Shown: positions 9,475-32,000 of the stretch, one piece after another
Layout: every line of letters starts with the position of its first letter
Position numbering within the stretch: position 1 is the first letter of the stretch
NCBI GenBank assembly: GCA_942492995.1
Contig: OW818653.1
Coordinates: 1,620,001 to 1,652,000 of the forward strand
Source: an uncultured Erysipelotrichaceae bacterium
GTDB taxonomy: Bacteria > Bacillota_I > Bacilli_A > Erysipelotrichales > Erysipelotrichaceae
Direction of reading: 5' to 3'
Length of the DNA: 32,000 nt
Notes under the pieces: generated by a model
The model's input: the letters and a program-made list of their open reading frames with translations, nothing else
What the model was told of the DNA's origin: nothing
The model's database searches: none
Position numbers and translations under genes: made by a program

Positions 9475-9840
9475 ATGAAGAAACTATCTGAATGTGAATT
9501 TGATGTAATGAAGGCAATTTGGGAAAGTGATGGATATATCGCTTCATCAGAGATTGTAGAAAAATTAAGTAACCGTTGGAAACAAACCACTGTCTTAACG
9601 TTCTTATCGCGTTTATGTACGAAGGGCTTTCTTGAATCAAAGAAAAAAGGTAAAGAGAACTTATATAAGAGATTAGTCGAATCATCAAACTACTTAAAGT
9701 TTGAAGGGGATGATTTAATGCGTCGATACGATAAATCGAGTGCGTTAAACCTTATTCAATCAATGTATCAAGATGAGCCGATTAGTGATGATGAATTGAA
9801 TGAAATTATAGATTGGGTTAAGAATCGGAGACAAGAATAA
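9475..9840 (+). CDS. BlaI/MecI/CopY-family winged-helix transcriptional repressor
   Basis: 121 aa. LSECEFDVMKAIWESDGYIASSEIVEKL...TTVLTFLSRLCTKGFL is the family signature. SD AAAGGAG upstream. Followed by an M56 sensor-protease gene. Confidence 0.88.
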   Translation: MKKLSECEFDVMKAIWESDGYIASSEIVEKLSNRWKQTTVLTFLSRLCTKGFLESKKKGKENLYKRLVESSNYLKFEGDDLMRRYDKSSALNLIQSMYQDEPISDDELNEIIDWVKNRRQE

Positions 9841-13944: not shown

Positions 13945-13968
13945 TATGTCACCTTTTTCTATTCGAAA

Positions 13969-15270: not shown

Positions 15271-15293
15271 TTAATTCTCCTTTAAGTAATTAT

Positions 15294-15316
15294 GAATGCT
15301 GGTACCGGTTACATTC
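15294..15316. promoter_or_regulatory. Candidate operator in the EIIC-sulfatase leader
   Basis: GAATG-CTGGTACCGGTTA-CATTC is an inverted repeat flanking a GC-rich core (overlapping GGTACC and ACCGGT) inside an otherwise AT-rich spacer. It sits just downstream of the predicted -10. Confidence 0.35.
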
Positions 15317-15323
15317 TACATAA

Positions 15324-15352
15324 CTTATACCGTGCATTTTATTCACTGTCAA
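15324..15352 (-). promoter_or_regulatory. Sigma-A-type promoter for the EIIC-sulfatase operon
   Basis: On the minus strand: TTGACA (15352-15347), 17-nt spacer, TATAAG (15329-15324). Confidence 0.65.
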
Positions 15353-15423
15353 TAACTTTTTGAAATATATTTTAGTATTATGAATAAAATGAAATACATT
15401 TTAGTTTGTGAGAGTAAATAATG

Positions 15424-15432
15424 TGATAAAAT
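15424..15432 (+). promoter_or_regulatory. Extended -10 element immediately upstream of rpiR (possible leaderless transcript)
   Basis: TG-A-TAAAAT. The hexamer ends at 15432 and the A of the rpiR ATG is at 15439, the expected +1. No Shine-Dalgarno sequence is present. Confidence 0.45.
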
Positions 15433-15438
15433 ATTTAC

Positions 15439-16209
15439 ATGAACAATTCACCAATCGAGCTAATTAATTTAAACCTATATAAAATGACAAAGAAGGAACG
15501 AGTTATTGCGGAATACATCCTTGAAGATCCACATAAGGCGATTCAATTTTCTGCAGAAATGATTGCGGAACAAACGCATACTTCAAAAGCTGCTTTTATT
15601 CGTTTTTGCCAGAAGCTTGGGTTTAATGGATACGCTGAATTCAAATTTGCATTATCTAGATCACTAGTTGCATATGTGAACTATGTCGATGATAATAATC
15701 CAATAAACCAAATTACCCAATCGTATTCGAATTTTATCCTTCAAATTAATTCAATGGTTACAAAGGAACAAGTCTCAACAATATCGAAACTTGTAATTTC
15801 GGCACGAAAACTTAAAATATTCGGTATAAATCGTACTGCCTTTAGTGCACATCAATTTAGAATGCGATTAGGAAAGATAGGATTTGATGCGGAGTTTTGT
15901 GATGATACAGTCACAATGCGAGACATTATTGAATATCTTGGACCAGAAGATGTTTGTATTATATTCTCGATAAAGGCAATGCCTTCAACTTATGGAGATA
16001 TTATTCCAGAACTAGTTAGTAATGGTGTAAAAGTTGTCTTATTAACGATGACTCCAAACAATAAGTTTGCTGAAGATGTTACACATATGGTAACGCTCCC
16101 TTATATTTCAAAATCATCATCAAAAGCATTTCTAGATGATCAAGCTATTTTCTTTGTATTTATTGAAATCTTACTTAATGAAATAGCTAGAGAGAGTAGT
16201 AATGTCTAA
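15439..16209 (+). CDS. RpiR/MurR-family regulator (HTH_6 plus SIS phosphosugar-binding domain)
   Basis: 256 aa. ERVIAEYILEDPHKAIQFSAEMIAEQTHTSKAAFIRFCQKLGFNGYAEFKFAL is the RpiR HTH. The C-terminal half is SIS-like (KLKIFGINRTAFSAHQF...). Divergent from the PTS-sulfatase operon. Confidence 0.85.
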   Translation: MNNSPIELINLNLYKMTKKERVIAEYILEDPHKAIQFSAEMIAEQTHTSKAAFIRFCQKLGFNGYAEFKFALSRSLVAYVNYVDDNNPINQITQSYSNFILQINSMVTKEQVSTISKLVISARKLKIFGINRTAFSAHQFRMRLGKIGFDAEFCDDTVTMRDIIEYLGPEDVCIIFSIKAMPSTYGDIIPELVSNGVKVVLLTMTPNNKFAEDVTHMVTLPYISKSSSKAFLDDQAIFFVFIEILLNEIARESSNV

Positions 16210-17296
16210 CTATTCATATTTAATAAAACCTGCTTCTTCTGCATGTAATCTGATGTGTACGTACTGTTTCTACCATGATGTCGCAAATCATCGAGAAATA
16301 AAATCATACGGAAATATGAGTGAAACAACTCAAGATTCAGTTATCAATAAAACGTTAGATGTGGAAGATAATGCGTTTATTAGTTATGCTTTTCAAGGTG
16401 GAGAACCAACATTAGTTGGTTTACCTTTTTTTATTGAATTTACTAATAAAGTAAATCAAACAAAAAAACCAAATCAAATGATTCAGTATAGTATTCAAAC
16501 AAATGGGACATTGTTAAATGATGATTGGGCGCAATTCTTTAAAGAGAATCAATTCTTAGTAGGATTATCGCTTGATGGGTATAAAGAGAATCATGATTAT
16601 TTTAGAATTACCAATCAGAATACGGAGACATATCAAAAAGTATTTAAATCACTTGAGTTATTACGTAAATATGAGATTGAGTTTAATGTATTAACTGTTC
16701 TAACTGAACAATTAGCTAAACATCCATTGAAGCTTTATAACTTTTACAAAGATAATAAAATATCTCATATCCAACTCATTCCATGTCTTCCAGATTTAAG
16801 TTCATTATCCACATTCTTTGCCTTAACACCTAAACGCTTTGCGTCATTCTATAAGTCATTCTATGATCTTTGGTTAAATGATCTTCAAAAAGGAGATTAT
16901 ATGAGTGTTGGATTATTTGACAATGTGATACCGATGTACAGAGGTGTTCCACCCCAACAATGTGGAATGGTAGGAAACTGTGCATTTCAGTTTGTAATAG
17001 AAAGTAATGGGAGTGTCTATCCTTGTGATTTCTTTGTGTTAGATGAGTATAATTGTGGAAATATCAATACTGAAACCATTCGAGAGATTGCGAAGAATAA
17101 GATTATTCATTCATTTATCCATGAACCTAAGAGAATGTGTAAAGAATGTAGTATTTGTCCATTCTTAGAAATGTGTCATGGTAATTGTAAGAGATTAAAT
17201 GTGACTTATTTTGATGAAGAGTATTGTGGTTACAAAGAATTTCTTCTTCATACTCAATCATCGATGAAAGAAATCGCATCTAGAATAAAAATATAA
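16202..17296 (+). CDS. Anaerobic sulfatase-maturating enzyme (radical SAM / SPASM)
   Basis: 364 aa. LIKPASSACNLMCTYCFY (CxxxCxxC radical-SAM cluster), plus C-terminal SPASM cysteines (CGMVGNC...YPCDFF, CKECSICPFLEMCHGNC). Overlaps the rpiR stop by 8 nt. Confidence 0.9.
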   Translation: MSNYSYLIKPASSACNLMCTYCFYHDVANHREIKSYGNMSETTQDSVINKTLDVEDNAFISYAFQGGEPTLVGLPFFIEFTNKVNQTKKPNQMIQYSIQTNGTLLNDDWAQFFKENQFLVGLSLDGYKENHDYFRITNQNTETYQKVFKSLELLRKYEIEFNVLTVLTEQLAKHPLKLYNFYKDNKISHIQLIPCLPDLSSLSTFFALTPKRFASFYKSFYDLWLNDLQKGDYMSVGLFDNVIPMYRGVPPQQCGMVGNCAFQFVIESNGSVYPCDFFVLDEYNCGNINTETIREIAKNKIIHSFIHEPKRMCKECSICPFLEMCHGNCKRLNVTYFDEEYCGYKEFLLHTQSSMKEIASRIKI

Positions 17297-17322
17297 AAGG
17301 AACTCATTGAGTTCCTTTGTTT
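17295..17322. terminator. Bidirectional terminator between the maturase gene and chrA
   Basis: AAAA-GGAACTC-att-GAGTTCC-TTT hairpin with an A-run on one side and a T-run on the other. Confidence 0.7.
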
Positions 17323-17879
17323 TAAATAAAATAGAGTATTGCGCCAATAGCAGCGCCAATTGATACAACGATTAATGTATCCCATTTTGTCTTCATACTT
17401 ATTATGAGGGAAACGATAAACGCAATTGTTGCGGTGAATTCTACACCAAGGAATGTTCCTTCTGGATTAAACAGAAATATTGATGAAACAATTAGACTAA
17501 GTGCCGCAACCCATATGAGCCCAACGATTGTTGGTCTTAAACCTTTCATAATGTTTTGGATGAAATGTAGATTACCATGTTTAGCGAAGAGATAACCAAG
17601 AATTAGAACTAATATGAATGAAGGTAGAACCGAACCAAGTGTTGCGATTAATCCGCCTAAATTGCCGCCAACTTTAATACCAACGAATGTGGCCGCATTA
17701 ATCATAATCGGACCTGGGGTCATTTGTGATAAAGAGGTTATATCAGCTAATTCTGTTAATGTGATCCACTGTTGTTTTTCGACGATAAAACTTTGAATAA
17801 GAGGCATAACTGCATATCCACCCCCAAAGGCAGATAACCCAATTAATAAGAAGGTATAGAATAGTTCAAAGTAAATCAT
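17322..17879 (-). CDS. chrA: Chromate transporter (CHR) family protein, short-chain, second of a pair
   Basis: 185 aa, about five TM helices, motif AFGGGYAVMPLI. ATGA-type 4-nt overlap with the upstream paralog. Confidence 0.8.
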   Translation of the reverse strand: MIYFELFYTFLLIGLSAFGGGYAVMPLIQSFIVEKQQWITLTELADITSLSQMTPGPIMINAATFVGIKVGGNLGGLIATLGSVLPSFILVLILGYLFAKHGNLHFIQNIMKGLRPTIVGLIWVAALSLIVSSIFLFNPEGTFLGVEFTATIAFIVSLIISMKTKWDTLIVVSIGAAIGAILYFI

Positions 17880-18436
17880 GATTGTACCCAGTTCTTAATA
17901 TAGCCGAAATACAAGAAGCCGATTAAACCAGCACATAACATGATATATCCAACTGAGATATTGGTAAACCAACCAATCCCAAATGCGATAAACATTAAGC
18001 TTAATGAGAAAGTACGATTTGTTTTAAGTAAGGATTTAAACATTTGATATGCTGAGAATAACATTACAGCACTTACTGCGCCACGCATACCACTAAGAAT
18101 CGATTGAATTAATAAATTGGTTTGGAAGAGTTCATAGAAAACATAGACAATAGATATAACTAAAAGTGGAGGTAAGAATGCGCCAATCAATGAAACTATT
18201 GCGCCAGGTACACCTTTTAACTTGTAGCCAACTAACATAGATGTATTAATTGCCATTGCGCCAGGAATGGATTGGGCTAAAGCGATGATATCTAACATAT
18301 CATTTTCGACTAAATAACCTTTCTCATCGACATAGTACTTTTTGATAATCGGCATTATGGCATAACCACCACCGAAGGTAACCATATTAATTTTAAAGAA
18401 AGAGAAAGCGAGTTCTAAATAACTTGGTTTTTTCAT
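17876..18436 (-). CDS. chrA: Chromate transporter (CHR) family protein, short-chain, first of a pair
   Basis: Motif TFGGGYAIMPII and multiple TM helices. I prefer the ATG at 18436 (MKKPSYLE, 186 aa) over the track GTG at 18442. Confidence 0.8.
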   Translation of the reverse strand: MKKPSYLELAFSFFKINMVTFGGGYAIMPIIKKYYVDEKGYLVENDMLDIIALAQSIPGAMAINTSMLVGYKLKGVPGAIVSLIGAFLPPLLVISIVYVFYELFQTNLLIQSILSGMRGAVSAVMLFSAYQMFKSLLKTNRTFSLSLMFIAFGIGWFTNISVGYIMLCAGLIGFLYFGYIKNWVQS

Positions 18437-18443
18437 AAACACG

Positions 18444-18542: not shown

Positions 18543-18548
18543 AGGAAT

Positions 18549-18741
18549 GAAAAGCGATGAAAAGTTAAGTAAATTGCGTTAATTTACCAGAGAATAAGCG
18601 GTTGGTGAAAGCTTATGGTTAACACAAAAGAAGATGGACTTGGAGCTGGTAACCGTAGATCTGCGTTAAAGATATCGAGTGCACTGAAAGGTGAACTAAG
18701 GTGGTACCACGTGAAAGCGTCCTTAGAGGATGCTTTTTTAT
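18549..18741 (+). promoter_or_regulatory. T-box transcription-attenuation leader, methionine specifier
   Basis: Stem I elements: AGAGA bulge (~18593), then the distal stem ATAAGC-ggttggtgaaa-GCTTAT. The specifier-loop context is AAAGAAG-ATG-GA, with ATG at 18634-18636. The GTGAAC box and the T-box sequence AAGGTGGTACCACGTG (18697-18712) follow. The terminator AGCGTCC-ttaga-GGATGCT plus T6 spans 18716-18741. Confidence 0.88.
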
Positions 18742-18754
18742 TTAGGAGAACAAG

Positions 18755-20668
18755 ATGACTAAACCAAAAAACAATTATTACATGACGACAGCGATTGCCT
18801 ACACATCCGGCAAACCACACATTGGGAACATTTATGAAATCGTCTTAGCGGATAGTATCGCACGATACAGACGCAATGATGGACATAATGTGTACTTTAT
18901 GACAGGTACTGATGAACATGGGCAAAAGATTGAAGAGAAGGCATTAGCTGCCAATAAGACACCGCAAGTATTCGTAGATGAAGTTGCGGGAGTTATTCGT
19001 GGTCTTTTCGATTTAATGAATACAAGTTATGACAAATTCATTCGTACAACCGATCCTTACCATGAACTTCAAGTACAGAAGATGTTTAAGAAACTCTATG
19101 AACAAGGGGATATCTATAAATCAGAATATGAAGGTTGGTACTGTACCGCATGTGAATCCTTCTATACTGAAACACAATTAAAAGATGGTAAATGTCCTGA
19201 TTGTGGAGGACCTGTACATAAAGCGAAAGAAGAATCGTATTTCTTTAAGTTAAGCAATTACGCAGATCGTTTAGTAAAACACATTGAAACACATCCAGAA
19301 TTCATTCAACCTGAGAGTCGTAAGAATGAAATGATTAATAATTTCATCAAACCTGGTCTACAAGATTTAGCGGTATCACGTACATCCTTTAAATGGGGAA
19401 TACCGGTTGATTTCGATCCAAAACATGTTGTCTATGTTTGGATTGATGCGCTAAGCAACTATATTACTGGGATTGGATACGATGCGGATGGGAATCATGA
19501 AGAGCGATTTAAAGAATTCTGGCCAGCTGATTTACATTTGATTGGTAAAGACATTCTACGTTTCCATACGATTTATTGGCCAATTATGTTAATGGCATTG
19601 GATATTCCTCTACCTAAACAAGTCTTTGGACATCCGTGGTTATTGGTTGGGGAAGGTAAGATGAGTAAGTCTAAAGGGAATGTCATCTATGCGGATGATT
19701 TAGTTAAACTCTTTGGGGTTGATGCGGTGAGATACTTGATGTTACATGAAATGCCATTTGCACAAGATGGTACATTAACCTATGACATCATGGTTGAGAG
19801 AATTAATTCTGATTTAGCGAATATCTTAGGTAACTTAGTGAATCGTACTTTGGCTATGACCAATAAATATAACAATGGAGTTGTTTCAAATCCAAAAGTA
19901 GTTGGTGAATTTGACCAAGAATTGATTGATTTAGCTGTTTCAACACCTAAAAAGGTTAATGAACACATGGATAAACTACGTGTTCAAGATTCCATTGATG
20001 ATATCTTTGATCTACTCAAACGTTGTAATAAGTATATCGATGAAACTAGTCCGTGGGCACTTGCGAAAGATGAAGCGAATAAAGATCGTTTAAATACTGT
20101 GCTTTACAACTTACTTGAGTCCATTCGTATTAGTGCAGTCTTACTTGAAGCGTACATTCCTGAGACATCTAAATCAATTCTTGATCAATTAAATACACAA
20201 GCTAGAGACTTTAGTTCTATTGAAACATTTGGACAATTAGAAGATGGCGTAAAGATTACTGATAAACCAACCATTCTATTTGCACGTTTAGATGCGGCAG
20301 AAATCATGGAAAAACTTCAACCAGCGCCTAAGAAATTGGAGACTAAACCTGAAGTTACGATTGATGATTTCAGTAAACTTGATTTACGTGTTGGTAAAAT
20401 ACTCAGCTGTGAGAATCATCCAGATTCAGATAAACTATTGATTTCTCAAGTTCAAATTGATGGGACAGTACGTCAAATCGTCAGTGGATTAAGACCTAAA
20501 TTTGAGGCAAGTGATTTAGTCGGGCTAAATATTGCGGTAGTCGTAAACTTAAAACCGGTTAAATTAAGAGGTGTTTTATCTGAAGGTATGATTCTTGTTG
20601 GAGAAAAAGAGAATAAGATGGAACTCGTACACTTCCATAGTGTCGAAGATGGCGCAATCATTCGATGA
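18755..20668 (+). CDS. metG: Methionine--tRNA ligase with a C-terminal Trbp111/EMAP-like tRNA-binding domain
   Basis: 637 aa. HIGH-type motif (GKPHIGNIYE), KMSKS (GKMSKSKGN), zinc knuckle CTACESF...CPDCGG, and C-terminal DLRVGKILSCENHPDSDKLLISQV. Confidence 0.96.
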   Translation: MTKPKNNYYMTTAIAYTSGKPHIGNIYEIVLADSIARYRRNDGHNVYFMTGTDEHGQKIEEKALAANKTPQVFVDEVAGVIRGLFDLMNTSYDKFIRTTDPYHELQVQKMFKKLYEQGDIYKSEYEGWYCTACESFYTETQLKDGKCPDCGGPVHKAKEESYFFKLSNYADRLVKHIETHPEFIQPESRKNEMINNFIKPGLQDLAVSRTSFKWGIPVDFDPKHVVYVWIDALSNYITGIGYDADGNHEERFKEFWPADLHLIGKDILRFHTIYWPIMLMALDIPLPKQVFGHPWLLVGEGKMSKSKGNVIYADDLVKLFGVDAVRYLMLHEMPFAQDGTLTYDIMVERINSDLANILGNLVNRTLAMTNKYNNGVVSNPKVVGEFDQELIDLAVSTPKKVNEHMDKLRVQDSIDDIFDLLKRCNKYIDETSPWALAKDEANKDRLNTVLYNLLESIRISAVLLEAYIPETSKSILDQLNTQARDFSSIETFGQLEDGVKITDKPTILFARLDAAEIMEKLQPAPKKLETKPEVTIDDFSKLDLRVGKILSCENHPDSDKLLISQVQIDGTVRQIVSGLRPKFEASDLVGLNIAVVVNLKPVKLRGVLSEGMILVGEKENKMELVHFHSVEDGAIIR

Positions 20669-21285
20669 ACATCGAAATGAAGGTTACAGATGAGGCAATC
20701 GCTTATCTTAGCGAAAAAGATCCTATTCTCGGCAAATATATTGCGTCAGTAGGACCTTTAGCACGTACAGGGATTGATGATCCATATATTGCGACAGTTG
20801 ATTGTATTTTATCGCAACAGATTTCCGCAAAAGCGTACCAAACCATTGCGGGACGATTCTATGCACGATTCAAAGATGCGGATCCCCATTTAATACTTGA
20901 TGCCCCATTTGAAGATATTCGTGCCGTAGGACTATCAACTCCTAAATCAAATTATGTTAGAGGAATTGCCCAGGCACGAATAGATAAAACCATCGATTTT
21001 GATTCATTGTCGGATAAAAGTTTCGAAGAAATAAAAGAAATACTCACAACCCTTAAAGGTGTTGGTCGATGGACCGTTGAGATGGTAAGTATCTTCTCAC
21101 TTCATCGCTTAGATGTGATTAGTTATGATGATTTAGCTATACGAAATGGGATAAAACGTTTATATCATAAAGAAGAAGTCACTAAGGACTTCTTCAATGA
21201 ATTAAGTATTCGTTATGCCCCATATCAATCGTATGCGTCCTTCTATTTATGGCACGCAAGTCAATTAAAAGAAGACTTTCAGTAA
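20665..21285 (+). CDS. HhH-GPD superfamily DNA glycosylase (3-methyladenine DNA glycosylase II-like)
   Basis: 206 aa. Helix-hairpin-helix LKGVGRWTVEMV followed by the catalytic-Asp region VISYDDLAIRNG. ATGA overlap with metG. Confidence 0.75.
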   Translation: MNIEMKVTDEAIAYLSEKDPILGKYIASVGPLARTGIDDPYIATVDCILSQQISAKAYQTIAGRFYARFKDADPHLILDAPFEDIRAVGLSTPKSNYVRGIAQARIDKTIDFDSLSDKSFEEIKEILTTLKGVGRWTVEMVSIFSLHRLDVISYDDLAIRNGIKRLYHKEEVTKDFFNELSIRYAPYQSYASFYLWHASQLKEDFQ

Positions 21286-21299
21286 GCGCAAGCTTACTG
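21280..21299. terminator. Hairpin shared by convergent genes, with both stop codons inside the stem
   Basis: CAGTAAGC-GCAA-GCTTACTG is an 8-bp stem with a GNRA loop. The glycosylase TAA (21283-21285) and the permease TAA (complement of 21294-21296) lie in opposite arms. A T-run follows on the + strand. Confidence 0.7.
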
Positions 21300-23543
21300 T
21301 TTTATTTGTGTAAACGCGTATGGATCAGTAATTGTAAGGCGTGGATTATCCTTAATCAATTCAAGAACGGTATCCGTATATTCAGGAAGAATTAATGTAT
21401 TTCCTCTGAATGTATATTCAGTTGTATAGGTAATGGATTCTCCAACCATTAAACTCAATAATGGCTCATCAGAAATACCACCATTACTTGTGTAAGGAAG
21501 AATCATATTGAACTGTTCTTCACTCAATTCGACATAAGTTGCCTTATAATTACCTAATTTATCATAACCACCAAAACCATTCATATTACTGTTCATGCCC
21601 ATTGCGCTATAGAATTTATAGTCATCAGTCGAATTGTCTTGAGGAATGAATAAGATGGTTTTTAATGATTCGTAGTTTGTTTGATCAGGGAATGTCACAT
21701 TAATCGAATTAAGGTAAGCTAAACTATTTGTAAATAATTCGTTGATTAAGATACTGCTAGAAATACAATTTGATAAATTATTCAATGTCTTACATGATGT
21801 TAAATTCACATAACCTAATGTGACAGGTTGTAAGTCATTGATATTACGATTTGCTAATTTCGCAAAATCTTTTTCATATGCTTGACTAAACGCTTCATAA
21901 TCAAAGTTCTTTAAACTTAATTTAGTTAGATTAGGCGTAAACGCATTCTGTACACTAACTTCTGTTAAATTAGAGAAATCTTTTCTTAGTGCTACATTTG
22001 GCGCAAAGTTCTTCATCATGCCTTCGTTATACATCAATTCTTGTAAGCTCTTTGTCCATTCATATGGAATCGTGTATGAGCGTGATATAACACTACCTGA
22101 ATCTAGAGTATAGGTGAATCGAACGGTTAGATTACTGCCTTCATAGGCAATGATAGAATAGTCATAATCTTCATAGGATTTAACATAACCTAGTTTAGTT
22201 TCGATACGATTAATCAAGGTTGTATCATACATGTATAAGTTACGATTCGAATAATCGACCCATTTGTATTCACTTAAGATAATCTTATGCATGTTTTGTA
22301 CAATTTCAATTCCACGTTCATCTTGAATGAGATAACCCATTGAATTATTATCGTAGTACATGTAATCGTTAATATTATTACGCGGTAAGATAACTCCGTT
22401 ATAATCTTCTAACTTAAACTCAACGGTTTTAATCTGATCAATTTCAGGAATCTTTGTAATATAACCAAAACCCTTAGAGAATAACCCAAATAACAATAAG
22501 CCAAATCCAATTGCCGCAATAATCAAATACCTTAACATTGCTTTATACATATTCTTAAAGCTACGTTGTGAAATGGTATCCATCACAAGATAGATAACAC
22601 CGGTAAAGAAGAATGGGAAGATAAAGTTTAATGGATTAAAGAAATTCTGATCAATGGATTCATTTAAACTATAGAAACCAGCGTACATTAAGAAGACGAG
22701 TACTACTGACACAAATGCACTAATCGTTGGGAAGAAATACGCATTGGTAAAGGGTGATTCAGCTTTATCATGACGACGAATCTTATAAAAGTAACGACTC
22801 GCAATCAATAATACGACAGAAATAACCAACCAATATAACCCATTTAATAATGAACTATCCCATAAGCGTGTCTCAACTTCGAATAAATTTTCGAAGAGTG
22901 ACCAAATCGGGAAGATTAACCCAATATAACGTGCAATGTAGTCTCCGTTAAATCCTAACAATACGATTGCGCTAAACGCAGTATATGCGGCATAGGTAAG
23001 AATCGGTAAGAAGTTTAGGACCATTCCATAGAGTAATCCATCAATACTGGTTCCTGTATGCATAAGCGTAAACACGATAATTGAGAAGATAGCAGACACA
23101 ATCATTAAACTGGTTAGCCATGTCTCAAAGACATTGAATATTGTAAATTCATACGATAGAACAACAAATCCACCCGCAAACCAAGCGACAGTAAATGGAA
23201 TAACCATGATAATAAATGCCGCAACGACATTCACAATTAATAGATCACTCCGTTTAATCGGTAACGCATGATAGGTATCCAAATGTTTCTTACTGTTGAT
23301 ATAGCCTAAGGTAAGAAACGGAATGGAAATCGCGGACACAATCAGTAGAATCAACGCAAAGACTTGTCCAACACCACGGATATCATCCATGTAAATATTA
23401 GGATTAATCAAACGTAATGTAAGAATGAGAACAGGGTATAGAACAATCATCCCAAATCCCATTAACATCATAAATCTACGATTGCGTTTCAATAAGAAGC
23501 GTAAATAATCGAGGTTGTTGCTTAATCTAAATTGATGAGCCAT
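21294..23543 (-). CDS. ABC-transporter permease, ~10 TM helices plus a ~390-aa C-terminal extracytoplasmic domain of unknown fold
   Basis: I prefer the ATG at 23543 (MAHQFRLS, 749 aa), with GGAGG 9 nt upstream. The track start at 23603 lies far inside the ATPase gene. About ten hydrophobic segments occur in the first ~360 aa. The rest is a hydrophilic Asn/Tyr/Ser-rich domain with a single Cys pair (SCKTLNNLSNC). Confidence 0.8.
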   Translation of the reverse strand: MAHQFRLSNNLDYLRFLLKRNRRFMMLMGFGMIVLYPVLILTLRLINPNIYMDDIRGVGQVFALILLIVSAISIPFLTLGYINSKKHLDTYHALPIKRSDLLIVNVVAAFIIMVIPFTVAWFAGGFVVLSYEFTIFNVFETWLTSLMIVSAIFSIIVFTLMHTGTSIDGLLYGMVLNFLPILTYAAYTAFSAIVLLGFNGDYIARYIGLIFPIWSLFENLFEVETRLWDSSLLNGLYWLVISVVLLIASRYFYKIRRHDKAESPFTNAYFFPTISAFVSVVLVFLMYAGFYSLNESIDQNFFNPLNFIFPFFFTGVIYLVMDTISQRSFKNMYKAMLRYLIIAAIGFGLLLFGLFSKGFGYITKIPEIDQIKTVEFKLEDYNGVILPRNNINDYMYYDNNSMGYLIQDERGIEIVQNMHKIILSEYKWVDYSNRNLYMYDTTLINRIETKLGYVKSYEDYDYSIIAYEGSNLTVRFTYTLDSGSVISRSYTIPYEWTKSLQELMYNEGMMKNFAPNVALRKDFSNLTEVSVQNAFTPNLTKLSLKNFDYEAFSQAYEKDFAKLANRNINDLQPVTLGYVNLTSCKTLNNLSNCISSSILINELFTNSLAYLNSINVTFPDQTNYESLKTILFIPQDNSTDDYKFYSAMGMNSNMNGFGGYDKLGNYKATYVELSEEQFNMILPYTSNGGISDEPLLSLMVGESITYTTEYTFRGNTLILPEYTDTVLELIKDNPRLTITDPYAFTQIKQ

Positions 23544-24417
23544 ATCCATTTGCCTCCATTTCATACACAAAGACTTCTTCCATCGTAATCGGAATTTCTT
23601 CACATAGAACAGGTTGAGTATCTTTAATTTGTTTCATCTTATCATCCAATTCACCTTTTAATACGATCATATAAACATTTCCACGTTTATCAAAGTACAT
23701 TGGATTTAGATCATGTAAGACCTTATCATCAATTGGGTTGGTATACGCCAATTGTATTTTATGGTATTGATTACGAATACTTTCAATTTCATCTTGGATG
23801 GTAATTGTATGATTATTTAACAACGCAATACGATCACAGATATCTTCTAATTCACGTAAGTTATGCGAAGAAATAATTACTGTCATTTCACGATTAAGAA
23901 GTTCATTCGCAATAATACGTTTTAGATTCAAACGCATAACAGGATCTAATCCATCAAACGCTTCGTCTAAAAGTAAAATATCAGGACTACAGGACAACGC
24001 TAAGATAATACTAGCTTGTCGTTTCATCCCTTTAGAGAAATCATTAATCTTATCGGTATCATTTAACCCGAATTTCTTCAGTAATGAATGATACATACTG
24101 TCATTGAAGCTAGGATAAAATAATTCATAGAATTGACGCATTTCTTTGATGGTCGATTGAGGTAAAAAGAACGGATCATCCGACACAAAGAGAATGTGTT
24201 TCTTGATACTTGGATTGTCATACACATCTACACCATTCACAAGAACAGATCCTTCATCTGCTTTTAGAACACCTGATATAATACGTAATAATGTACTTTT
24301 ACCAGCCCCATTAGGACCTACTAAGCCATAAATACTCGCTTTAGGTATTTCCCAATTGATGTGTTCTAGGACTTTTTTAGTGTCAAATTGTTTATTTATA
24401 TTCTTTAGATTAATCAT
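23527..24417 (-). CDS. ABC transporter ATP-binding protein (ABC-2/YtrB-like subfamily)
   Basis: 296 aa. Walker A GPNGAGKST, signature FSKGMKRQ, Walker B ILLLDEAFDGLD, H-loop SSHNL, and a C-terminal accessory domain. SD AGGAG upstream. Confidence 0.92.
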   Translation of the reverse strand: MINLKNINKQFDTKKVLEHINWEIPKASIYGLVGPNGAGKSTLLRIISGVLKADEGSVLVNGVDVYDNPSIKKHILFVSDDPFFLPQSTIKEMRQFYELFYPSFNDSMYHSLLKKFGLNDTDKINDFSKGMKRQASIILALSCSPDILLLDEAFDGLDPVMRLNLKRIIANELLNREMTVIISSHNLRELEDICDRIALLNNHTITIQDEIESIRNQYHKIQLAYTNPIDDKVLHDLNPMYFDKRGNVYMIVLKGELDDKMKQIKDTQPVLCEEIPITMEEVFVYEMEANGYGSSI

Positions 24418-24438
24418 GGTTAGACTCCTTTTGGTTAA

Positions 24439-25107
24439 TCATAATGAGAGACTTTCTTTCTTAATATACGGGAAATTCAAGATAAACTGCGAACCTTCAT
24501 TCATTTGACTTGTCACATGGATCTGTCCTTTGTGCATCGACACAATGGATTGAACCATAGCCAAGCCTAATCCAATGCCTTCTTTATTGGTCTTTTCACA
24601 ACGATAATATGGCTCAAAGATTTTATCAATCTTTTCATTTGGAATGCCAATTCCATTATCGAGTATTTTAATTGAGTAATTCTTTTGGCTTGATGAACAA
24701 TGCATTTCAACACTTCCACCTGTCTGATTATATTTTATGGCATTTTCGACTAAATTGTATAAACAACGATACATAAGAATAGGATTGCCATAGGATTCAG
24801 GATGTCCATCGATACGATAACTTAGCTTAATCTCTTTACGTTGTGCAATCACATTTAAGTCTTCGATTACGTCTATGATGATTTCTTCGATATTCAAGAC
24901 TTCGGTTAAACATGATTTCTCAGGATTTGACTCTAGTAAAGTATCCAATAATTCACTCATTTTATTAACGGTGCGATTGATCACATTAAGTGTAGCTTGA
25001 TATTCTTCTACAGAAACCGTTGATTGTTGGTTAAGCACATCAATTTGAGCTTTGATGATTGTAAGGGGTGTTTTAAGTTCATGGGCAACACTCGATGATT
25101 TATTCAT
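24439..25107 (-). CDS. Histidine kinase core only (DHp plus HATPase_c); no TM, HAMP or sensor region
   Basis: H box VAHELKTPL, N box LVENAIKYN, G1 DNGIGI, F FEPYYR, G2 GIGLGL. I prefer the ATG at 25107 (222 aa), with GGAGAA 7 nt upstream, which overlaps the GntR gene by 8 nt. The phosphoacceptor His is then about residue 9. Confidence 0.75.
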   Translation of the reverse strand: MNKSSSVAHELKTPLTIIKAQIDVLNQQSTVSVEEYQATLNVINRTVNKMSELLDTLLESNPEKSCLTEVLNIEEIIIDVIEDLNVIAQRKEIKLSYRIDGHPESYGNPILMYRCLYNLVENAIKYNQTGGSVEMHCSSSQKNYSIKILDNGIGIPNEKIDKIFEPYYRCEKTNKEGIGLGLAMVQSIVSMHKGQIHVTSQMNEGSQFILNFPYIKKESLSL

Positions 25108-25474
25108 GAGGTTTCTCCGTACTAAAAACTTTATCAATGAGTTCAAGAATTCTATCTTTCTTTATCCCTAACTGATTTAATATACCCAAGTCTTTCTCAA
25201 CTTCCTCTAATTTAATTAGTACTAAATTAGAATCACCTTCACGTTTCTTAACGAAAGATCCTTTACCTTGAAGTGAATAGATATACCCGTTATTCTCTAA
25301 CTCGGCATAGGCTTTCACAACGGTATTGGGATTAATGCCCAAATCATTGGCTAGATTACGCACGCCAGGCAACTGTTGGTCTGGTTGAAAAGCACCACAC
25401 GCGATCTGTGCAAGCACTTGTTCAATGATTTGTTGATAAATCGGTGTACGACTTAATGAACTTAGACTTATCAT
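25100..25474 (-). CDS. GntR-family transcriptional regulator, short YtrA-like subfamily
   Basis: 124 aa. PIYQQIIEQVLAQIACGAFQPDQQLPGVRNLANDLGINPNTVVKAYAELENNGYIYSLQGKGSFV is the GntR winged HTH. The short ~50-aa C-terminus is typical of YtrA-type proteins. SD AAGGAG upstream. Confidence 0.9.
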   Translation of the reverse strand: MISLSSLSRTPIYQQIIEQVLAQIACGAFQPDQQLPGVRNLANDLGINPNTVVKAYAELENNGYIYSLQGKGSFVKKREGDSNLVLIKLEEVEKDLGILNQLGIKKDRILELIDKVFSTEKPHE

Positions 25475-25484
25475 ATTGTCTCCT

Positions 25485-25516
25485 TAATGTACTACTGTAC
25501 TATTATAGTAGTACAT
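25485..25516. promoter_or_regulatory. 32-bp near-perfect palindrome (candidate YtrA-type operator) upstream of the GntR operon
   Basis: AATGTACTACT-GTACTATTAT-AGTAGTACATT has perfect 11-bp arms. On the coding (minus) strand, TATAAT (25506-25501) sits at the centre. The palindrome begins 1 nt past the SD. Confidence 0.6.
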
Positions 25517-25679: not shown

Positions 25680-25964
25680 ATGCCATTTAAAAAAGTTGAA
25701 ATAAAACCATTATTGGAAAATGAAATGAATAATTTAGATTTTAAATCTAATTTCAATCAAATCAAAAAAGAATATGAGTTGATTGAGCAAATCGTTATGA
25801 TGAGAAAAAAACTAAATATCACCCAAGCTGAACTAGCTATAAAAGTTAAAGTCTCTCAACAAGCCATTTCAAGACTTGAGAATGAAAAGCATATACCTAA
25901 TATGAATACATTAATGAGAATTGTGGATGGTTTAGGTTTAAATTTAATATTAGTTGAGAGGTAA
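25680..25964 (+). CDS. XRE-family HTH protein with a ~40-aa N-terminal extension (antitoxin-like architecture)
   Basis: 94 aa. The C-terminal LNITQAELAIKVKVSQQAISRLENEKHIPNMNTLMRIVDGLGLNL is a Cro/C1 HTH. SD AAGAAGG upstream. No partner ORF lies on either side. Confidence 0.8.
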   Translation: MPFKKVEIKPLLENEMNNLDFKSNFNQIKKEYELIEQIVMMRKKLNITQAELAIKVKVSQQAISRLENEKHIPNMNTLMRIVDGLGLNLILVER

Positions 25965-26164
25965 TTTATATTAGTATAGAAAATGTGCTAAAATCACAGG
26001 TTTTTTAAAGAAGAAGCGTTGATTAGATTAAAATGAATCTTTAAGCATGGATGTGATTAAGATAAATAGTTAAATAAGCTGATTGATTGATAATGATTTG
26101 ATGTGATGCTAAGATGAAATTAAATTAATCACTTGTATATCCCTGATGATAATTTGGAGGGCGT

Positions 26165-26503
26165 ATGGAGAAATTTGTTGTATTATATTTTTGTTCTATG
26201 GAAGATCAAATGGCAGTAAGCCAACAACCTCAAGAAGAACGAGAAAAAGGTATGGCTCTTTGGTTTGAATGGCAAAAAGAATTAGGAGATAAATTAGTTG
26301 ATTTTGGGGCACCATTATTTGGTAGTGCTCGAATCAATAAGAATGGTTCATTTACTGAGAGTGCTTTAGAACTTACAGGCTATTCAATTATTCAAGCTGA
26401 GGATTTAGATGAAGCGAAAGAATTAGTGAAGAATCATCCACATTTTACGTATGGGGATAGTTGTGCAGTTGAAGTCCATGAAATAATGGATATGGGAATG
26501 TAA
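26165..26503 (+). CDS. Small soluble protein, probably YciI-like (dimeric alpha/beta barrel) family
   Basis: 112 aa. The pattern FVVLY...W..W...LGDKLVDFGAPL...GYSIIQAEDLDEAKELVKNHPHF...VEVHEIM resembles YCII-related domains. SD GGAGGG upstream. The family call is tentative. Confidence 0.5.
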   Translation: MEKFVVLYFCSMEDQMAVSQQPQEEREKGMALWFEWQKELGDKLVDFGAPLFGSARINKNGSFTESALELTGYSIIQAEDLDEAKELVKNHPHFTYGDSCAVEVHEIMDMGM

Positions 26504-26528
26504 TTCTTACGTAATTGATACATTTAGA

Positions 26529-26566
26529 AGGAACAATTAGCTAATATCCGCTTTTGTTCCTTTTTA
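26529..26566 (+). terminator. Probable terminator after the YciI-like gene
   Basis: AGGAACAA ... TTGTTCCT is an 8-bp stem with a 17-nt loop, followed by TTTT. Confidence 0.55.
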
Positions 26567-26635
26567 ATAAATTACTAATCAATGAGAATTATGGATAGAA
26601 TAGGTTTAAAATTAGTGTTAATAGAGAGGTAATCT

Positions 26636-27436
26636 ATGACAATCGAGAAAAAGTATCAAGCAATTGCACCAGAAACACAATATTTTAAAGAAGAAGCGTT
26701 TACGTCAATTAATCATACCGAAATACGGTGGTTAGGAAATTCGAGTCATCTTATTAATTCACATGGAACATGTATTATGATTGATCCATTACTAAAAGGT
26801 TTTGATATGAAGCTCTTGAGAGAAGCACCAATTCAACCTGAAGATGTTCCTCATTTAGATGCGGTATTAATAACACATGATGATAATGATCATTTAAGTC
26901 GACCAACAATTGAAGTCTTAAAATCAGTCACAACTGAATTTCATGCGCCACATTTTGTGTCTAGTTTACTTGAAGAAGAATATCCATCATTTGGACATGG
27001 GATATGGGAAACATTCAAGATTAAAAATATACAGGTAAAACTAACGCCTGCAGATCATGCATGGAAAAACGAAAACCCTAAATACAAACGTAAATATGCT
27101 TTTGAAGATTATTGTGGGTATTGGTTAGATACACCAGATGGTAGTATTTGGGCAATTGGAGATTCTCGATTACTCCCTGAACAATTAACAATGCCGCATC
27201 CAGATGTCATCTTCTTTGATTTCTCTGATAGTTCTTGGCATATTGGTTTCGATAATGCGGTTAAGTTAGCGAATACCTATCCGAACAGCGAATTATTACT
27301 GTGTCACTGGGGAACGGTTGATGCGCCAGATATGACACCGTTTAATGGGGATCCAAAGAATCTTATGGATAAAGTTGTAAATCCAGAACGTATTAGAATA
27401 CTTGCGCCTGGAGAAATATATCGATTGAATCGTTAA
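26636..27436 (+). CDS. MBL-fold metallo-hydrolase
   Basis: 266 aa. The metallo-beta-lactamase motif region is LDAVLITHDDNDHLS, a variant of HxHxDH. The later ADHAW, GDS and CHWG segments are plausible additional ligands. SD AGAGAGG upstream. Confidence 0.75.
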   Translation: MTIEKKYQAIAPETQYFKEEAFTSINHTEIRWLGNSSHLINSHGTCIMIDPLLKGFDMKLLREAPIQPEDVPHLDAVLITHDDNDHLSRPTIEVLKSVTTEFHAPHFVSSLLEEEYPSFGHGIWETFKIKNIQVKLTPADHAWKNENPKYKRKYAFEDYCGYWLDTPDGSIWAIGDSRLLPEQLTMPHPDVIFFDFSDSSWHIGFDNAVKLANTYPNSELLLCHWGTVDAPDMTPFNGDPKNLMDKVVNPERIRILAPGEIYRLNR

Positions 27437-28473: not shown

Positions 28474-30345
28474 ATGCATATCGTTGTAATTGGAGCAGGA
28501 CACGCTGGCGTCGAAGCCGCACTATCAAGCGCAAGAATGGGCGTAAAGACCAGTCTTTTAACCATGGATGCGTCGCGAATTGCGATAATGCCATGTAATC
28601 CATCGGTTGGTGGACCTGCAAAAGGAATTGTTGTACGTGAAATTGACGCATTAGGTGGTCAAATGGGAATTACTGCGGATAAAACTGCGTTACAGTTTAA
28701 ACTCTTAAACTCAACCAAAGGACCAGGTGTTCAATGTTTACGTGTACAATCCGATAAAATCGAATATTCAAAAATGATGCACGATATCGTACATCATACA
28801 AATAACTTAGACGTTGTGGAAGATTTAGTCGAAGGAATTGTGGTTGAGAATGGTGTTGTGAAGGGAATTCAATGTGAGAAACGTGGATTTATGGCGGCTG
28901 ATGCGGTTATATTGACCAGCGGAACATACATGAGTTCGAAGATTTTGGTTGGATCTACCGCTACAGTAAGTGGACCAGATGATCAACGTACAACGAATAA
29001 GCTATCTGAATCACTACGTGAATTAGGCTTAAGAACATTTAGATTAAAGACAGGAACACCTCCTCGTATTAAGACAAACTCGATTGATTTTAGTCATGGA
29101 TTAATTCAACCAGGGGATGAAAAGTTTATTCACTTCTCATTGGATATGAAAGTTGAAGAGTATCCGAAAGAACAAGTACCGTGTTACTTGATTTATACAC
29201 AACCTGAAACACATGAAGTTATTAAACTTAACTTAAATAAATCCGCTATGTATTCTGGTTTAGTTGAAGGGGTAGGACCACGTTATTGTCCATCCATTGA
29301 AGATAAATTAGTACGTTTCAGTGATAAAGAGCGTCACCAAATCTTCTTAGAACCTGAATCGAGACATTTAGACACAACCTATATCCAAGGTTTTTCGACT
29401 TCCATGCCACATGATATTCAGGATAAAATGATTCGTTCATTACCTGGATTTGAAAACTGTGTCATTGATAAATACGCATATGCGATAGAATACGATGCGA
29501 TTGATCCGACTCAACTCTATCCAAACTTAGAAGTGAAAACGATATCTGGTTTATTTAGTGCAGGTCAAATTAATGGGACAAGTGGTTATGAAGAAGCGGC
29601 AGGTCAAGGCTTATTGGCTGGAATCAACGCAGTCCTTAAACTACAAGGCAAAGATGCACTTATCTTGAAACGTGATGAAGCATACATTGGGGTTATGATT
29701 GATGATTTAGTCACAAAAGGTGTTGTGGAACCGTATCGTTTACTTACATCACGAGCTGAACATCGTCTTTTATTGCGTCATGATAATGCGGAAATGCGTT
29801 TGAGCGAATATGGACATCAGGTAGGGTTATTAAGTGAAGAGCGGTATGCGAACGTATTACAAATGAAAGCTGATTTAAATCAGTTAATCGAAGAATTAAA
29901 AGTTAAACGTTTTACTAAGAAAGATGGTATTCATCCGTTCTTAATCGAAAAAGAATATCCTATCTTCAATGAAGGAATTACGGCGTATGAAGTACTAAAA
30001 CGTCCGAGAATTACTATTGATGAACTTAAACCTTATATTGAAATCGAACACTATTCTGTCGATGTTTTAAACATGGCAGAAATTGAAATAAAGTATGAAG
30101 GTTATATCCAAAAAGCAATTCGTGAAGTTGAACGTCTACATAGTTTAGATAATGTGAAGATACCAACTGACTTGGACTACAATGATATTCCTCACCTTTC
30201 GATTGAAGGTAAACAACGTATGACTAAGATTAAACCTTTGACTTTAGGACAAGCATCGCGTATTTCTGGGGTAAATCCTGCAGATATGGTCGTCTTAAAG
30301 ACGCATCTCAATAAAGGTAAAAAGACGGACAGTCACACTTCTTAA
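28474..30345 (+). CDS. mnmG: tRNA uridine-5-carboxymethylaminomethyl modification enzyme MnmG (GidA)
   Basis: 623 aa. FAD motif VIGAGHAGVEAA, plus GPRYCPSIEDK and AGQINGTSGYEEAA. Confidence 0.96.
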   Translation: MHIVVIGAGHAGVEAALSSARMGVKTSLLTMDASRIAIMPCNPSVGGPAKGIVVREIDALGGQMGITADKTALQFKLLNSTKGPGVQCLRVQSDKIEYSKMMHDIVHHTNNLDVVEDLVEGIVVENGVVKGIQCEKRGFMAADAVILTSGTYMSSKILVGSTATVSGPDDQRTTNKLSESLRELGLRTFRLKTGTPPRIKTNSIDFSHGLIQPGDEKFIHFSLDMKVEEYPKEQVPCYLIYTQPETHEVIKLNLNKSAMYSGLVEGVGPRYCPSIEDKLVRFSDKERHQIFLEPESRHLDTTYIQGFSTSMPHDIQDKMIRSLPGFENCVIDKYAYAIEYDAIDPTQLYPNLEVKTISGLFSAGQINGTSGYEEAAGQGLLAGINAVLKLQGKDALILKRDEAYIGVMIDDLVTKGVVEPYRLLTSRAEHRLLLRHDNAEMRLSEYGHQVGLLSEERYANVLQMKADLNQLIEELKVKRFTKKDGIHPFLIEKEYPIFNEGITAYEVLKRPRITIDELKPYIEIEHYSVDVLNMAEIEIKYEGYIQKAIREVERLHSLDNVKIPTDLDYNDIPHLSIEGKQRMTKIKPLTLGQASRISGVNPADMVVLKTHLNKGKKTDSHTS

Positions 30346-30373
30346 TAGAAGTATAATTTGTTATAATACAACC

Positions 30374-31081
30374 ATGGAAAATGGATTAACCCAAGAAAAT
30401 TTTTATCACTTTTTACTGTCTTTGTATCCAAATCGGGCAAAACAGTTAAGTGAAGCTTTTGAAATCTACTTAAATCTTCTAATAGAAGTTAATAAAGTAA
30501 TGAATTTAACAGCGATTGATCAAGAAGAAGCGGTGCGTGAGAAACATTTCATGGACTGTTTATTGATTGAGCCTTTATTACCGCTGAATGTGAATGTTGC
30601 GGATGTAGGGAGTGGAGCTGGATTTCCAGGTTTATGTCTTGCCATCGTACGTGATGATTGTCAATTTGATTTAATTGAACCGACAGGGAAACGTTGTCAG
30701 TTCTTGAATAATGTCGTACAAACATTAAATTTAAAGAATGTAAAAGTAATTAATCGTCGAGCAGAAGAATGTTTAGATCTAAAAGAGATGTATGATGTAT
30801 GCACATCAAGAGCGGTAGCGAAGTTAAGTGTTCTAATGGAAATATCGGTACCACTACTAAAAGTTAACGGTAAAATGATTGCGATGAAGGGCTTAAATGC
30901 ACAAGAAGAAGTCGATGACGCAAAGAATGCGATAAAATTACTTAAAATGAGTGATACAATCTATCATGCACATACTTTACCTACAGCTGGTCAACGTATG
31001 AATTTAGAATGGACTAAATTGGATAAAACGCCAAGTCAATATCCTCGTGCTTATGCACAAATTAAAAAGAAAGCACTTTAA
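30374..31081 (+). CDS. rsmG: 16S rRNA (guanine527-N7)-methyltransferase RsmG (GidB)
   Basis: 235 aa. SAM motif DVGSGAGFPGL. Position after mnmG. Confidence 0.93.
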   Translation: MENGLTQENFYHFLLSLYPNRAKQLSEAFEIYLNLLIEVNKVMNLTAIDQEEAVREKHFMDCLLIEPLLPLNVNVADVGSGAGFPGLCLAIVRDDCQFDLIEPTGKRCQFLNNVVQTLNLKNVKVINRRAEECLDLKEMYDVCTSRAVAKLSVLMEISVPLLKVNGKMIAMKGLNAQEEVDDAKNAIKLLKMSDTIYHAHTLPTAGQRMNLEWTKLDKTPSQYPRAYAQIKKKAL

Positions 31082-31082
31082 T

Positions 31083-32000
<918 letters not shown>

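Follow-up and report, generated by a model that had tools for sequence, protein, structure and literature searches.

Two-component kinases are usually viewed as sensors, and their specificity and insulation as properties that are protected after duplication. Why, then, would a histidine kinase core stripped of every sensory domain lie inside an operon that begins with the gene of a GntR-type repressor, ends with those of an ATP-binding cassette (ABC) transporter and has no response regulator gene beside it? The question is raised by a locus in a 32,000-nucleotide stretch of DNA from an uncultured Erysipelotrichaceae bacterium (assembly GCA_942492995.1, contig OW818653.1, positions 1,620,001 to 1,652,000 of the forward strand), the whole of which is hereafter referred to as the window. 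The analysis presented here indicates that the kinase is a natural duplicate that lost its whole input half, was moved under a different type of regulator and was then kept by purifying selection. We consider this descriptive and evolutionary account of the locus very likely to be right; our reading of how the kinase acts is more tentative.

A soluble histidine kinase core in a GntR-led transporter operon

Four minus-strand open reading frames (ORFs) fill positions 25474 to 21294 of the window. In the order of transcription, they encode a 124-aa YtrA-type repressor (25474-25100; Pfam GntR), a 222-aa soluble histidine kinase core whose ATG is at 25107 (25107-24439; Pfam HisKA and HATPase_c), a 296-aa ABC ATPase (24417-23527; Pfam ABC_tran) and a 749-aa permease with its ATG at 23543 (23543-21294). 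The GntR and kinase genes overlap by 8 nt (ATGAATAA), with GGAG 7 nt 5' of the kinase start; the kinase and ATPase genes are separated by a 21-nt gap that contains AGGAG; and the ATPase and permease genes overlap by 17 nt, with GGAGG 9 nt 5' of the permease ATG. As is typical of YtrA-type operons, ABC ATPase and permease genes thus lie downstream of the repressor gene on one strand, with junctions that either overlap or span at most 21 nt and a ribosome-binding site at each. The four genes are predicted to form a single transcript, and the kinase gene is translationally coupled to that of the repressor. The packing of the four genes had been described in an earlier note on this DNA, and its coordinates, overlaps and ribosome-binding motifs were all reproduced. 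A 235-aa form of the kinase with a TTG start, proposed by the ORF finder, found no backing among orthologues and was discarded. Rfam and tRNA scans returned no match inside the operon. That the 32 kb hold no ORF with a receiver domain, another observation made earlier, was borne out both by a Pfam scan of the 31 window ORFs of at least 100 aa, none of which matched Response_reg, and by tblastn searches with an OmpR-type regulator, which gave no match in the window or within 10 kb in relatives.

The kinase consists only of the dimerization and histidine phosphotransfer (DHp) and catalytic and ATP-binding (CA) domains (HisKA, E 5e-10; HATPase_c, E 9e-26). Its N-terminus, MNKSSSVA-H9-ELKTPL, places a mere 8 residues ahead of the phospho-accepting histidine, within an H box reading AHELKTPL. 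Conserved positions further include N118, E121 and N122 (N box), D150, G152 and G154 (G1), F164 (F box) and G177-L182 (G2); among these, H9, N118, E121, N122, D150, G154 and G179-L182 do not vary in an alignment of 59 relatives, short and full-length, which confirms the intact H, N, G1, F and G2 boxes recognized in the earlier note. The HExxT phosphatase motif is likewise intact in both subclades of short kinases described below. The protein is devoid of any hydrophobic segment (maximum Kyte-Doolittle value of 1.29), and NCBIfam kinase models align from its residues 2-7 onwards and with their C-terminal half only (positions 176-390 of 390 in the case of PnpS). An AlphaFold2 model (pLDDT 83) comprises two helices, residues 2-27 and 33-60, followed by a confidently predicted alpha/beta ATP-binding domain (69-213). 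Solved structures tell a similar story, as alignments with PDB chains of 217-258 aa cover the protein from end to end; residue 6 of the kinase is matched with residue 26 of the cytoplasmic HK853 construct, and the natural core therefore begins about 20 residues later than this laboratory core. Measured against class I HisKA kinases, the protein possesses the catalytic boxes and is missing both the input module (transmembrane (TM), sensor, HAMP or PAS segments) and the adjacent regulator. It is thus a bona fide HisKA-class catalytic core that falls outside the canonical definition of a sensor kinase with its adjacent regulator.

The kinase gene was inserted into an older exporter operon

Neighborhoods were compared by tblastn across 43 genome loci and additional metagenome loci, individual loci being referred to as L001, L002 and so forth. 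Gene order is maintained across the 43 loci. In 32 Erysipelotrichaceae loci, the ATPase gene comes directly after that of GntR, with 368-374 nt from one start codon to the other; in kinase-bearing loci (the window, L001-L004, L009-L014, L023 and L059), the same distance is 1027-1069 nt. Permease identity to the window protein is 26-43% in the 32 kinase-less loci and at least 57% wherever the kinase is present, while that of the ATPase amounts to 94-96% for members of the window-type subclade and to 52-68% for kinase-less loci. In a tree of the ATPase, all loci with the kinase group into a single clade that arises from within lineages lacking it. Given that the ATPase gene directly follows GntR in as many as 32 loci, the three-gene operon is ancestral and the kinase gene a later insertion. 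A three-gene YtrA-type GntR/ABC-2 exporter operon is thus widespread in Erysipelotrichaceae, and a 666-bp gene was inserted exactly between its repressor and ATPase genes in one monophyletic subclade.

The kinase-bearing loci fall into two groups. In the second of these (L012, L013, L014 and L023), the kinase (at 8462-9130 in L012) is about 37-40% identical to the window type, compared to 80% for the ATPase and 58% for the permease, and the kinase and ATPase genes overlap by ATGA. The short kinase ORF nevertheless starts at the same alignment position in both subclades (ten loci). One insertion followed by fast divergence and two separate captures, one for the window type and one for the L012 type, could each account for this situation, two captures being suggested by the low identity of the two types and by their equal distance from full-length kinases; the latter is the less likely of the two, and we favor a single insertion because insertion boundaries, kinase length and monophyly of the host operon all agree. 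The L012-type kinase would then reflect either a burst of divergence after insertion or replacement by another kinase core. Whichever applies, the recurrence of the gene combination reflects vertical descent after one insertion, at most two, rather than repeated independent assembly. The earlier note had asked whether this combination recurs: it does so across relatives, with a kinase of 221-222 aa, yet it is confined to one subclade where it was acquired by descent.

The short kinase is maintained by selection

The kinase ORF is intact, at 221-222 aa, in 10 out of 10 operon loci examined from the two subclades, and a search with the kinase retrieved 25 protein clusters of 221-229 aa sharing 67-100% identity. 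Pairwise ratios of non-synonymous to synonymous substitution rates (dN/dS) were 0.05-0.13 wherever dS was near or below 1 (0.06 for the window versus L001; 0.08 for L002 versus L011; 0.06 for L012 versus L014), compared to 0.05-0.13 for GntR and 0.03-0.12 for the permease. The DHp and CA domains are each constrained when considered separately (0.02-0.17), and values within the L012-type subclade range from 0.05 to 0.07. None of the hallmarks of a pseudogene, be it frameshifts or stop codons, loss of motifs, variable length or a dN/dS near 1, was found. These patterns show that the short kinase is kept under purifying selection, and it is probably functional. It has moreover been retained through extensive divergence, with synonymous sites near saturation and protein identity down to 39%.

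Other candidate short kinases did not withstand scrutiny. P0044 (233 aa), which could have represented a second short-kinase family, derives from a full-length gene that has broken and is separated by short ORFs from a fragmented regulator beside it, and P0061 and P0062 (223 and 228 aa) lie on contigs of less than 1 kb and were probably cut by the contig ends. A decayed two-component pair from another organism occupies L006-L008 (about 6850-8700 in L006), near an AgrB-type gene: downstream of the OmpR-type regulator, which is intact in L006 but split in both L007 and L008, come a 34-aa ORF and then a 233-aa kinase fragment; the 160 nt that precede this fragment still align to the full-length kinase. 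This pair stands in contrast to the maintained short kinase.

Origin from a resident two-component sensor kinase

The nearest longer relatives of the short kinase are kinases of 360-372 aa, 48-53% identical to it and paired with an OmpR-type regulator. The full-length kinases (365-370 aa; about 52% identical to the short form) carry two TM helices joined by a loop of about 45 aa, and then a HAMP-like linker. The short kinase becomes alignable to them 3-5 residues ahead of the histidine; it is missing residues 1-147 of its paralogue, that is the first TM helix, the loop of about 45 aa, the second TM helix and the HAMP-like linker. In a neighbor-joining tree, window-type short kinases are sister to the full-length kinases, and the L012 type occupies a long branch of uncertain placement. 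The short kinase is thus a paralogue, truncated at the 5' end of its gene, of a resident OmpR-class sensor kinase with two TM helices. The similarity of the two proteins is unevenly distributed, helix alpha1 being 77% identical between the short and the co-resident full-length kinase for an overall value of 52%.

The full-length kinase (HK) follows a 223-aa OmpR-type response regulator (RR) in a conserved htpG-(PTP)-RR-HK-HAD...secA-prfB locus, represented in our set by L005, L053-L058 and L060. Regulators 88-90% identical to that of L005 were found on contigs of 716,585, 337,446, 771,854 and 85,658 bp, the same sizes as operon-bearing contigs. Direct examination of the last of these, JGI contig Ga0645783_02601 (85,658 bp), revealed the operon and the htpG-RR-kinase locus together, 67-70 kb apart. 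The first 4.4 kb (0-4.4 kb) carry htpG, the regulator gene and that of a kinase with two TM helices, cut by the contig end; positions 70.5-78.8 kb carry VIT1, GntR, the 222-aa kinase, the ATPase, the permease, an HhH-GPD gene and the methionyl-tRNA synthetase (MetRS) gene. Because regulator and operon share contigs, genomes that encode the short kinase have also retained its paralogous two-component system in full. Relatives without the short kinase have this system too, with regulators on contigs of 1,659,681, 2,032,407 and 1,242,185 bp that also hold L025, L018 and L034.

With regard to the surroundings of the full-length pair, an IS200/IS605 element (Y1 transposase and TnpB/OrfB_IS605) lies about 6 kb upstream of the RR-kinase genes in L053 (570-2110) and L054 (82-1622). 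It was not found in L055-L057.

Repressor, operator and terminator

Pfam GntR matches residues 13-75 of the repressor (E 2e-13), after which only some 50 residues follow; a winged helix-turn-helix (HTH) with a short C-terminal tail is the architecture of YtrA-type short regulators. The best NCBIfam matches among short regulators were PmtR (model positions 3-80) and the Rv1152 family (3-117 of 120), both below cut-off. GntR orthologues were present in every locus surveyed, with the same length and architecture with or without the kinase.

A promoter and putative operator (25533-25486, minus strand) were delineated from a search for inverted repeats, from boxes recognized by eye and from conservation. 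The -35 box TTGCAT (25533-25528) is separated by a 17-nt spacer from the -10 box TACTAT (25510-25505), the latter lying inside a 32-bp palindrome at 25517-25486, AATGTACTACTATA-atag-TACAGTAGTACATT, with 14-nt arms of 93% complementarity and a 4-nt spacer. The palindrome, which the earlier note had placed ahead of the operon, covers the -10 box and the likely transcription start. The assignment of the boxes by eye is backed by conservation in 43 loci; a simple sigma-70 scan did not call this promoter. In all 43 loci, kinase present or not, the -35 box and a TGTAyTA...TArTACA palindrome are found at a constant distance from the GntR start. This predicted operator suggests that the GntR protein binds the palindrome in its own promoter and thereby autoregulates the operon, as do YtrA-type regulators, which are autoregulatory and paired with ABC transporters (PMC6117091).

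At the other end of the operon, an 8-bp stem hairpin, CAGTAAGC-gcaa-GCTTACTG (21280-21299), is a candidate bidirectional terminator that had previously been thought to close the operon. The hairpin is present and the stop codon of the permease gene lies inside it, yet its T-tract is better on the plus strand, the minus-strand tail being AAAGTCTTCTTTT; on both counts, it is shared by the permease gene and the convergent HhH-GPD gene.

An uncharacterized exporter family

The ATPase (Pfam ABC_tran, E 1e-28) belongs to the ABC-2/DrrA/PmtA-like class with a C-terminal extension; its best NCBIfam matches, PmtA, GldA and DrrA, all fall below cut-off. The permease has no Pfam or NCBIfam match, FtsX included, and its homologues were seen only in Erysipelotrichaceae-like genomes and metagenomes. 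Its AlphaFold2 model (pLDDT 83, pTM 0.75) comprises an N-terminal amphipathic helix, nine TM helices and a C-terminal alpha/beta domain, the helices of the model including residues 2-20, 22-46, 52-79, 98-127, 135-162, 166-194, 200-221 (two short helices) and 231-255. The ten TM helices counted earlier from the sequence are accordingly replaced, on the basis of both the model and hydropathy, by nine preceded by an amphipathic helix. Positive charge is concentrated at the N-terminus and in the loops following TM2, TM6 and TM8, and the positive-inside rule together with the nine TM helices leads us to predict that the C-terminal domain (approximately residues 360-749, about 390 aa) is extracellular; the large ectodomain proposed in the earlier note thus stands as a prediction.

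Foldseek searches with the N-terminal transmembrane domain retrieved NosY, ABCG2 and CcmB, all of the type V/ABC-2 fold, over the first six TM helices. Target TM-scores were 0.53-0.73 for NosY and CcmB (0.65-0.73 for NosY) and lower for the longer ABCG2 chains; the probability was 1.00 for NosY chains, yet the E value only about 0.03. The features expected of an ABC-2/type V exporter, namely an amphipathic helix, a six-TM fold, short re-entrant helices between TM5 and TM6 and a separate nucleotide-binding domain, were all found; the remaining three TM helices and the ectodomain go beyond the canonical type V fold. The locus thus defines a conserved and as yet uncharacterized Erysipelotrichaceae exporter family made up of GntR, an ABC-2 ATPase and a nine-TM permease whose ectodomain falls outside curated models.

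A possible role for the kinase core

Having no input domain, the core is expected to have its output set mainly by the amount made. Departure of the repressor from its operator would lead to the exporter and the kinase core being made together; by analogy with characterized relatives, the trigger for release may be membrane-active peptides or cell-wall antibiotics, the YtrA-type operon clnRAB of C. difficile being induced by LL-37 (PMC6117091) and ytrGABCDEF of B. subtilis by cell-wall antibiotics (PMC7828314). The core would then constitutively phosphorylate a response regulator encoded at a distance although, its HExxT motif being intact, it could instead be a phosphatase. An engineered FasB consisting of the DHp and HATPase domains alone complements a fasB mutant (PMC12675982). 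The likeliest target would be the 223-aa OmpR-type regulator of the full-length paralogue, which is the best candidate because it is encoded in the same genomes and because alpha1 is so much better conserved between the two kinases (77%) than the proteins as a whole (52%). A signal sensed by a one-component regulator would in this manner pass into a two-component regulon. As a specific mechanism, an expression-set soluble core acting on the distal regulator of its paralogue is one that we put forward tentatively, at somewhat short of an even chance. The notion of a natural 'expression-gated' kinase, in which the repressor sets the dose of an input-less core that acts on the paralogue's regulator, strikes us as rather unlikely; a cytoplasmic one-component signal would here reach a two-component regulon by way of gene dosage instead of allostery. 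In a stronger variant, the soluble core would read the activity of the ABC ATPase.

Several observations weigh against this proposal. The contigs on which the regulator was seen to co-reside with the operon come from close relatives rather than from the 2.0-Mb genome of the window itself. Helix alpha1 of the short kinase has only two turns before the histidine, which could impair dimerization or autokinase activity. Positions +7, +8, +11, +12 and +15 relative to the histidine, where contacts with the regulator are expected, are invariably S, I, T, H and V in full-length kinases; they read T/A, I/V, A/T/V, Q and V in short ones. Comparing the same pair of genomes for either kinase, alpha1 is 86% identical in the short form versus 100% in the full-length form, and alpha2 71% versus 89%, at a time when their CA domains are equally diverged (77% versus 80%) and the regulator is 96% identical. 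This faster divergence of the short-kinase DHp domain could mean that the short kinase is partially insulated from the regulator of its paralogue, or that it has a different partner. Finally, identity of the L012-type short kinases to both window-type and full-length kinases is no higher than 37-40%.

Among the alternatives, the one closest to the earlier note is that the core docks on the ATPase or permease and reads transport as BceS reads BceAB, the ectodomain binding the substrate. The position of the kinase gene directly upstream of that of the ATPase (with an ATGA overlap in L012-type loci and 21 nt in the window), the large predicted extracytoplasmic domain of the permease and the fact that flux sensing by Bce-type modules is an established principle (PMC7828314) are all in keeping with this scenario; gene order, however, is equally well explained by a chance landing site of the insertion. 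More importantly, permease, ectodomain, ATPase and operator are conserved in 32 kinase-less loci, and the occurrence of the same permease, ectodomain, GntR and operator in these loci argues that the ectodomain evolved without the kinase. The kinase, besides, is lacking a membrane segment through which to contact the permease, the permease has a type V rather than an FtsX/BceB fold, and the operon holds no regulator. We therefore regard transport-coupled sensing as unlikely. The suggestion of the earlier note that the transporter ectodomain serves as the sensor of the kinase accordingly finds no support, the ectodomain predating the kinase and the features that define Bce modules being absent; the remainder of that reading is supported, in that the gene combination recurs, the soluble core is maintained and a candidate distal regulator has been found. 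We attach a similarly low probability to the core being a modulator of its paralogue which, upon induction of the operon, would form DHp heterodimers with the full-length kinase or compete for the regulator in a RetS-GacS-like manner. Both kinases are encoded in the same genomes, the DHp domain is their most similar region (77% in alpha1), and RetS and GacS provide a documented case in which one kinase regulates another via the DHp interface (PMC8498467). A pure inhibitor, on the other hand, could dispense with an intact ATP-binding domain; in the short kinase, the N, G1, F and G2 boxes have all been retained and purifying selection acts on the CA domain. Helix alpha2 and the loop, which shape the dimer, have also diverged (46-54% and 20-60% identity, respectively).

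A role independent of any response regulator, whereby the core would be an ATP-dependent accessory of the operon that phosphorylates or sequesters GntR, for instance, or regulates the ATPase, could account for the translational coupling of the kinase to GntR and for the greater variability of its regulator-facing DHp positions relative to the paralogue; the strong divergence between the two subclades would likewise fit co-evolution with lineage-specific partners. We deem it improbable nonetheless, as GntR has the same length and architecture with and without the kinase, and the H box and HExxT motif are strictly kept as classical phosphotransfer would lead one to expect. To our knowledge, no HisKA kinase has been reported to act on a GntR protein. 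It is very improbable that the short kinase is what is left, without function, of a broken two-component system, or that it arises from misannotation of one. The gene is plainly truncated from a longer kinase, and decayed kinases do exist in related metagenomes, as illustrated by the 233-aa P0044 beside its fragmented regulator, but an ORF intact in 10 of 10 loci, the existence of 25 clusters down to 67% identity in addition to a subclade at 39%, the retention of all catalytic motifs and dN/dS values of 0.05-0.13 all speak against decay. The second reading of the earlier note, that of a kinase stranded by the loss of its two-component system, fails on the same grounds and on the further ground that a complete pair of regulator and full-length kinase genes is found on the same contigs in relatives.

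Should the core still address the regulator of its paralogue, the locus would illustrate a simple evolutionary route by which one-component and two-component signaling may be joined, and would provide a minimal natural DHp-CA kinase to study. Since the organisms are uncultured, practical impact is expected to be modest until tests are performed on heterologously produced proteins.

Genes flanking the operon

The interval between the operon promoter and VIT1 (25680-27436) encodes an Xre-type HTH protein, a YCII protein and a metallo-beta-lactamase-fold protein in the window. Upstream of GntR in L001 and L002 are found MpsC, PEPcase_2, MFS and GGDEF proteins, a Gp49/HTH toxin-antitoxin-like pair and an AAA protein; in L059, VIT1 adjoins GntR directly. 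This interval is thus an insertion hotspot beside a conserved operon. Farther along, mnmG (GIDA), rsmG (GidB) and a ParB/Noc-type gene succeed one another on the plus strand (28474-31844), and their proximity suggests that the operon lies near the chromosomal replication origin region.

On the other side of the operon, a T-box leader (18548-18727, plus strand; Rfam RF00230, 99 bits, above the gathering score) immediately precedes the MetRS gene (18755-20668), whose 637-aa product has a C-terminal tRNA_bind domain. A split ChrA-type pair (17322-18442, minus strand) consists of two half-size Chromate_transp genes of 185 and 188 aa that overlap by 4 nt and whose synteny is kept in L001-L003. Positions 12478-17296 carry genes for a sulfatase (488 aa) and a phosphotransferase system EIIC component (433 aa) on the minus strand, divergent from those of an RpiR/SIS regulator and a 364-aa radical-SAM/SPASM protein that is likely an anaerobic sulfatase-maturating enzyme; the cluster looks like a sulfated-sugar utilization locus. 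Finally, a BlaI/BlaR1-like pair (9475-11810, plus strand), in which the gene for a 121-aa Penicillinase_R repressor overlaps by one base that for a 656-aa Peptidase_M56 (BlaR1-type) membrane sensor-protease, represents a second envelope- or antibiotic-sensing module in the 32 kb.

Comparison with known systems

Several ingredients of the locus are familiar: kinases that are orphan or soluble, the loss of domains following duplication, and operons that combine YtrA-type regulators with ABC transporters are all well known. A GntR-kinase-ABC operon, a natural kinase of this kind reduced to DHp and CA, or a naturally truncated paralogue of a kinase kept within a transporter operon, was undescribed in the literature searched, the coverage of which was incomplete and thus provides weak evidence of novelty.

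Like clnRAB, pmtR-pmtABCD of S. aureus and ytrGABCDEF, the window operon begins with a short GntR gene (about 120-130 aa) followed by ABC genes and has a palindrome, its putative operator, over its own promoter. It differs from these three YtrA-type operons, none of which includes a histidine kinase, by the presence of one and by a permease that is a single 749-aa, nine-TM protein with an ectodomain of about 390 aa outside curated families. With NCBIfam scores far below equivalog cut-offs, it is not an orthologue of Pmt, Cln or Ytr. The resemblance to BceRS-BceAB resides in an ABC transporter with a large extracellular domain encoded beside a kinase with no sensor domain of its own. BceS, however, is a two-TM intramembrane-sensing kinase encoded with BceR, whereas the window kinase is soluble and has no adjacent regulator; BceB is a 10-TM FtsX-type permease whose extracellular domain is the TM7-TM8 loop (PMC7828314), whereas the window permease is a nine-TM type V protein with a C-terminal domain; and the window operon, unlike Bce modules, is predicted to be controlled by a GntR repressor. 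Neither a BceB-type permease nor a two-TM kinase with an adjacent BceR-like regulator, the two traits by which Bce modules are recognized, was thus found at this locus.

The short kinase would resemble RetS-GacS and KinA in that what a kinase does depends on a second kinase, or on how much of the protein is expressed, and not on a ligand-binding domain; the sporulation threshold of KinA is an instance of such dose control. These proteins have kept their sensor or PAS domains, and none is a truncated paralogue inside a transporter operon. Engineered DHp-CA cores, such as the HK853 cytoplasmic domain and truncated FasB, have the same domain content as the short kinase; most of them keep 20-25 residues before the histidine, compared to only 8 in the natural protein. 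The closest relationship remains that with the full-length 365-370-aa kinase and its 223-aa regulator: the two kinases are encoded in the same genomes and have homologous DHp and CA domains with the same AHELKTPL H box, but the short one belongs to a different operon under a putative GntR operator, and its DHp domain evolves faster.

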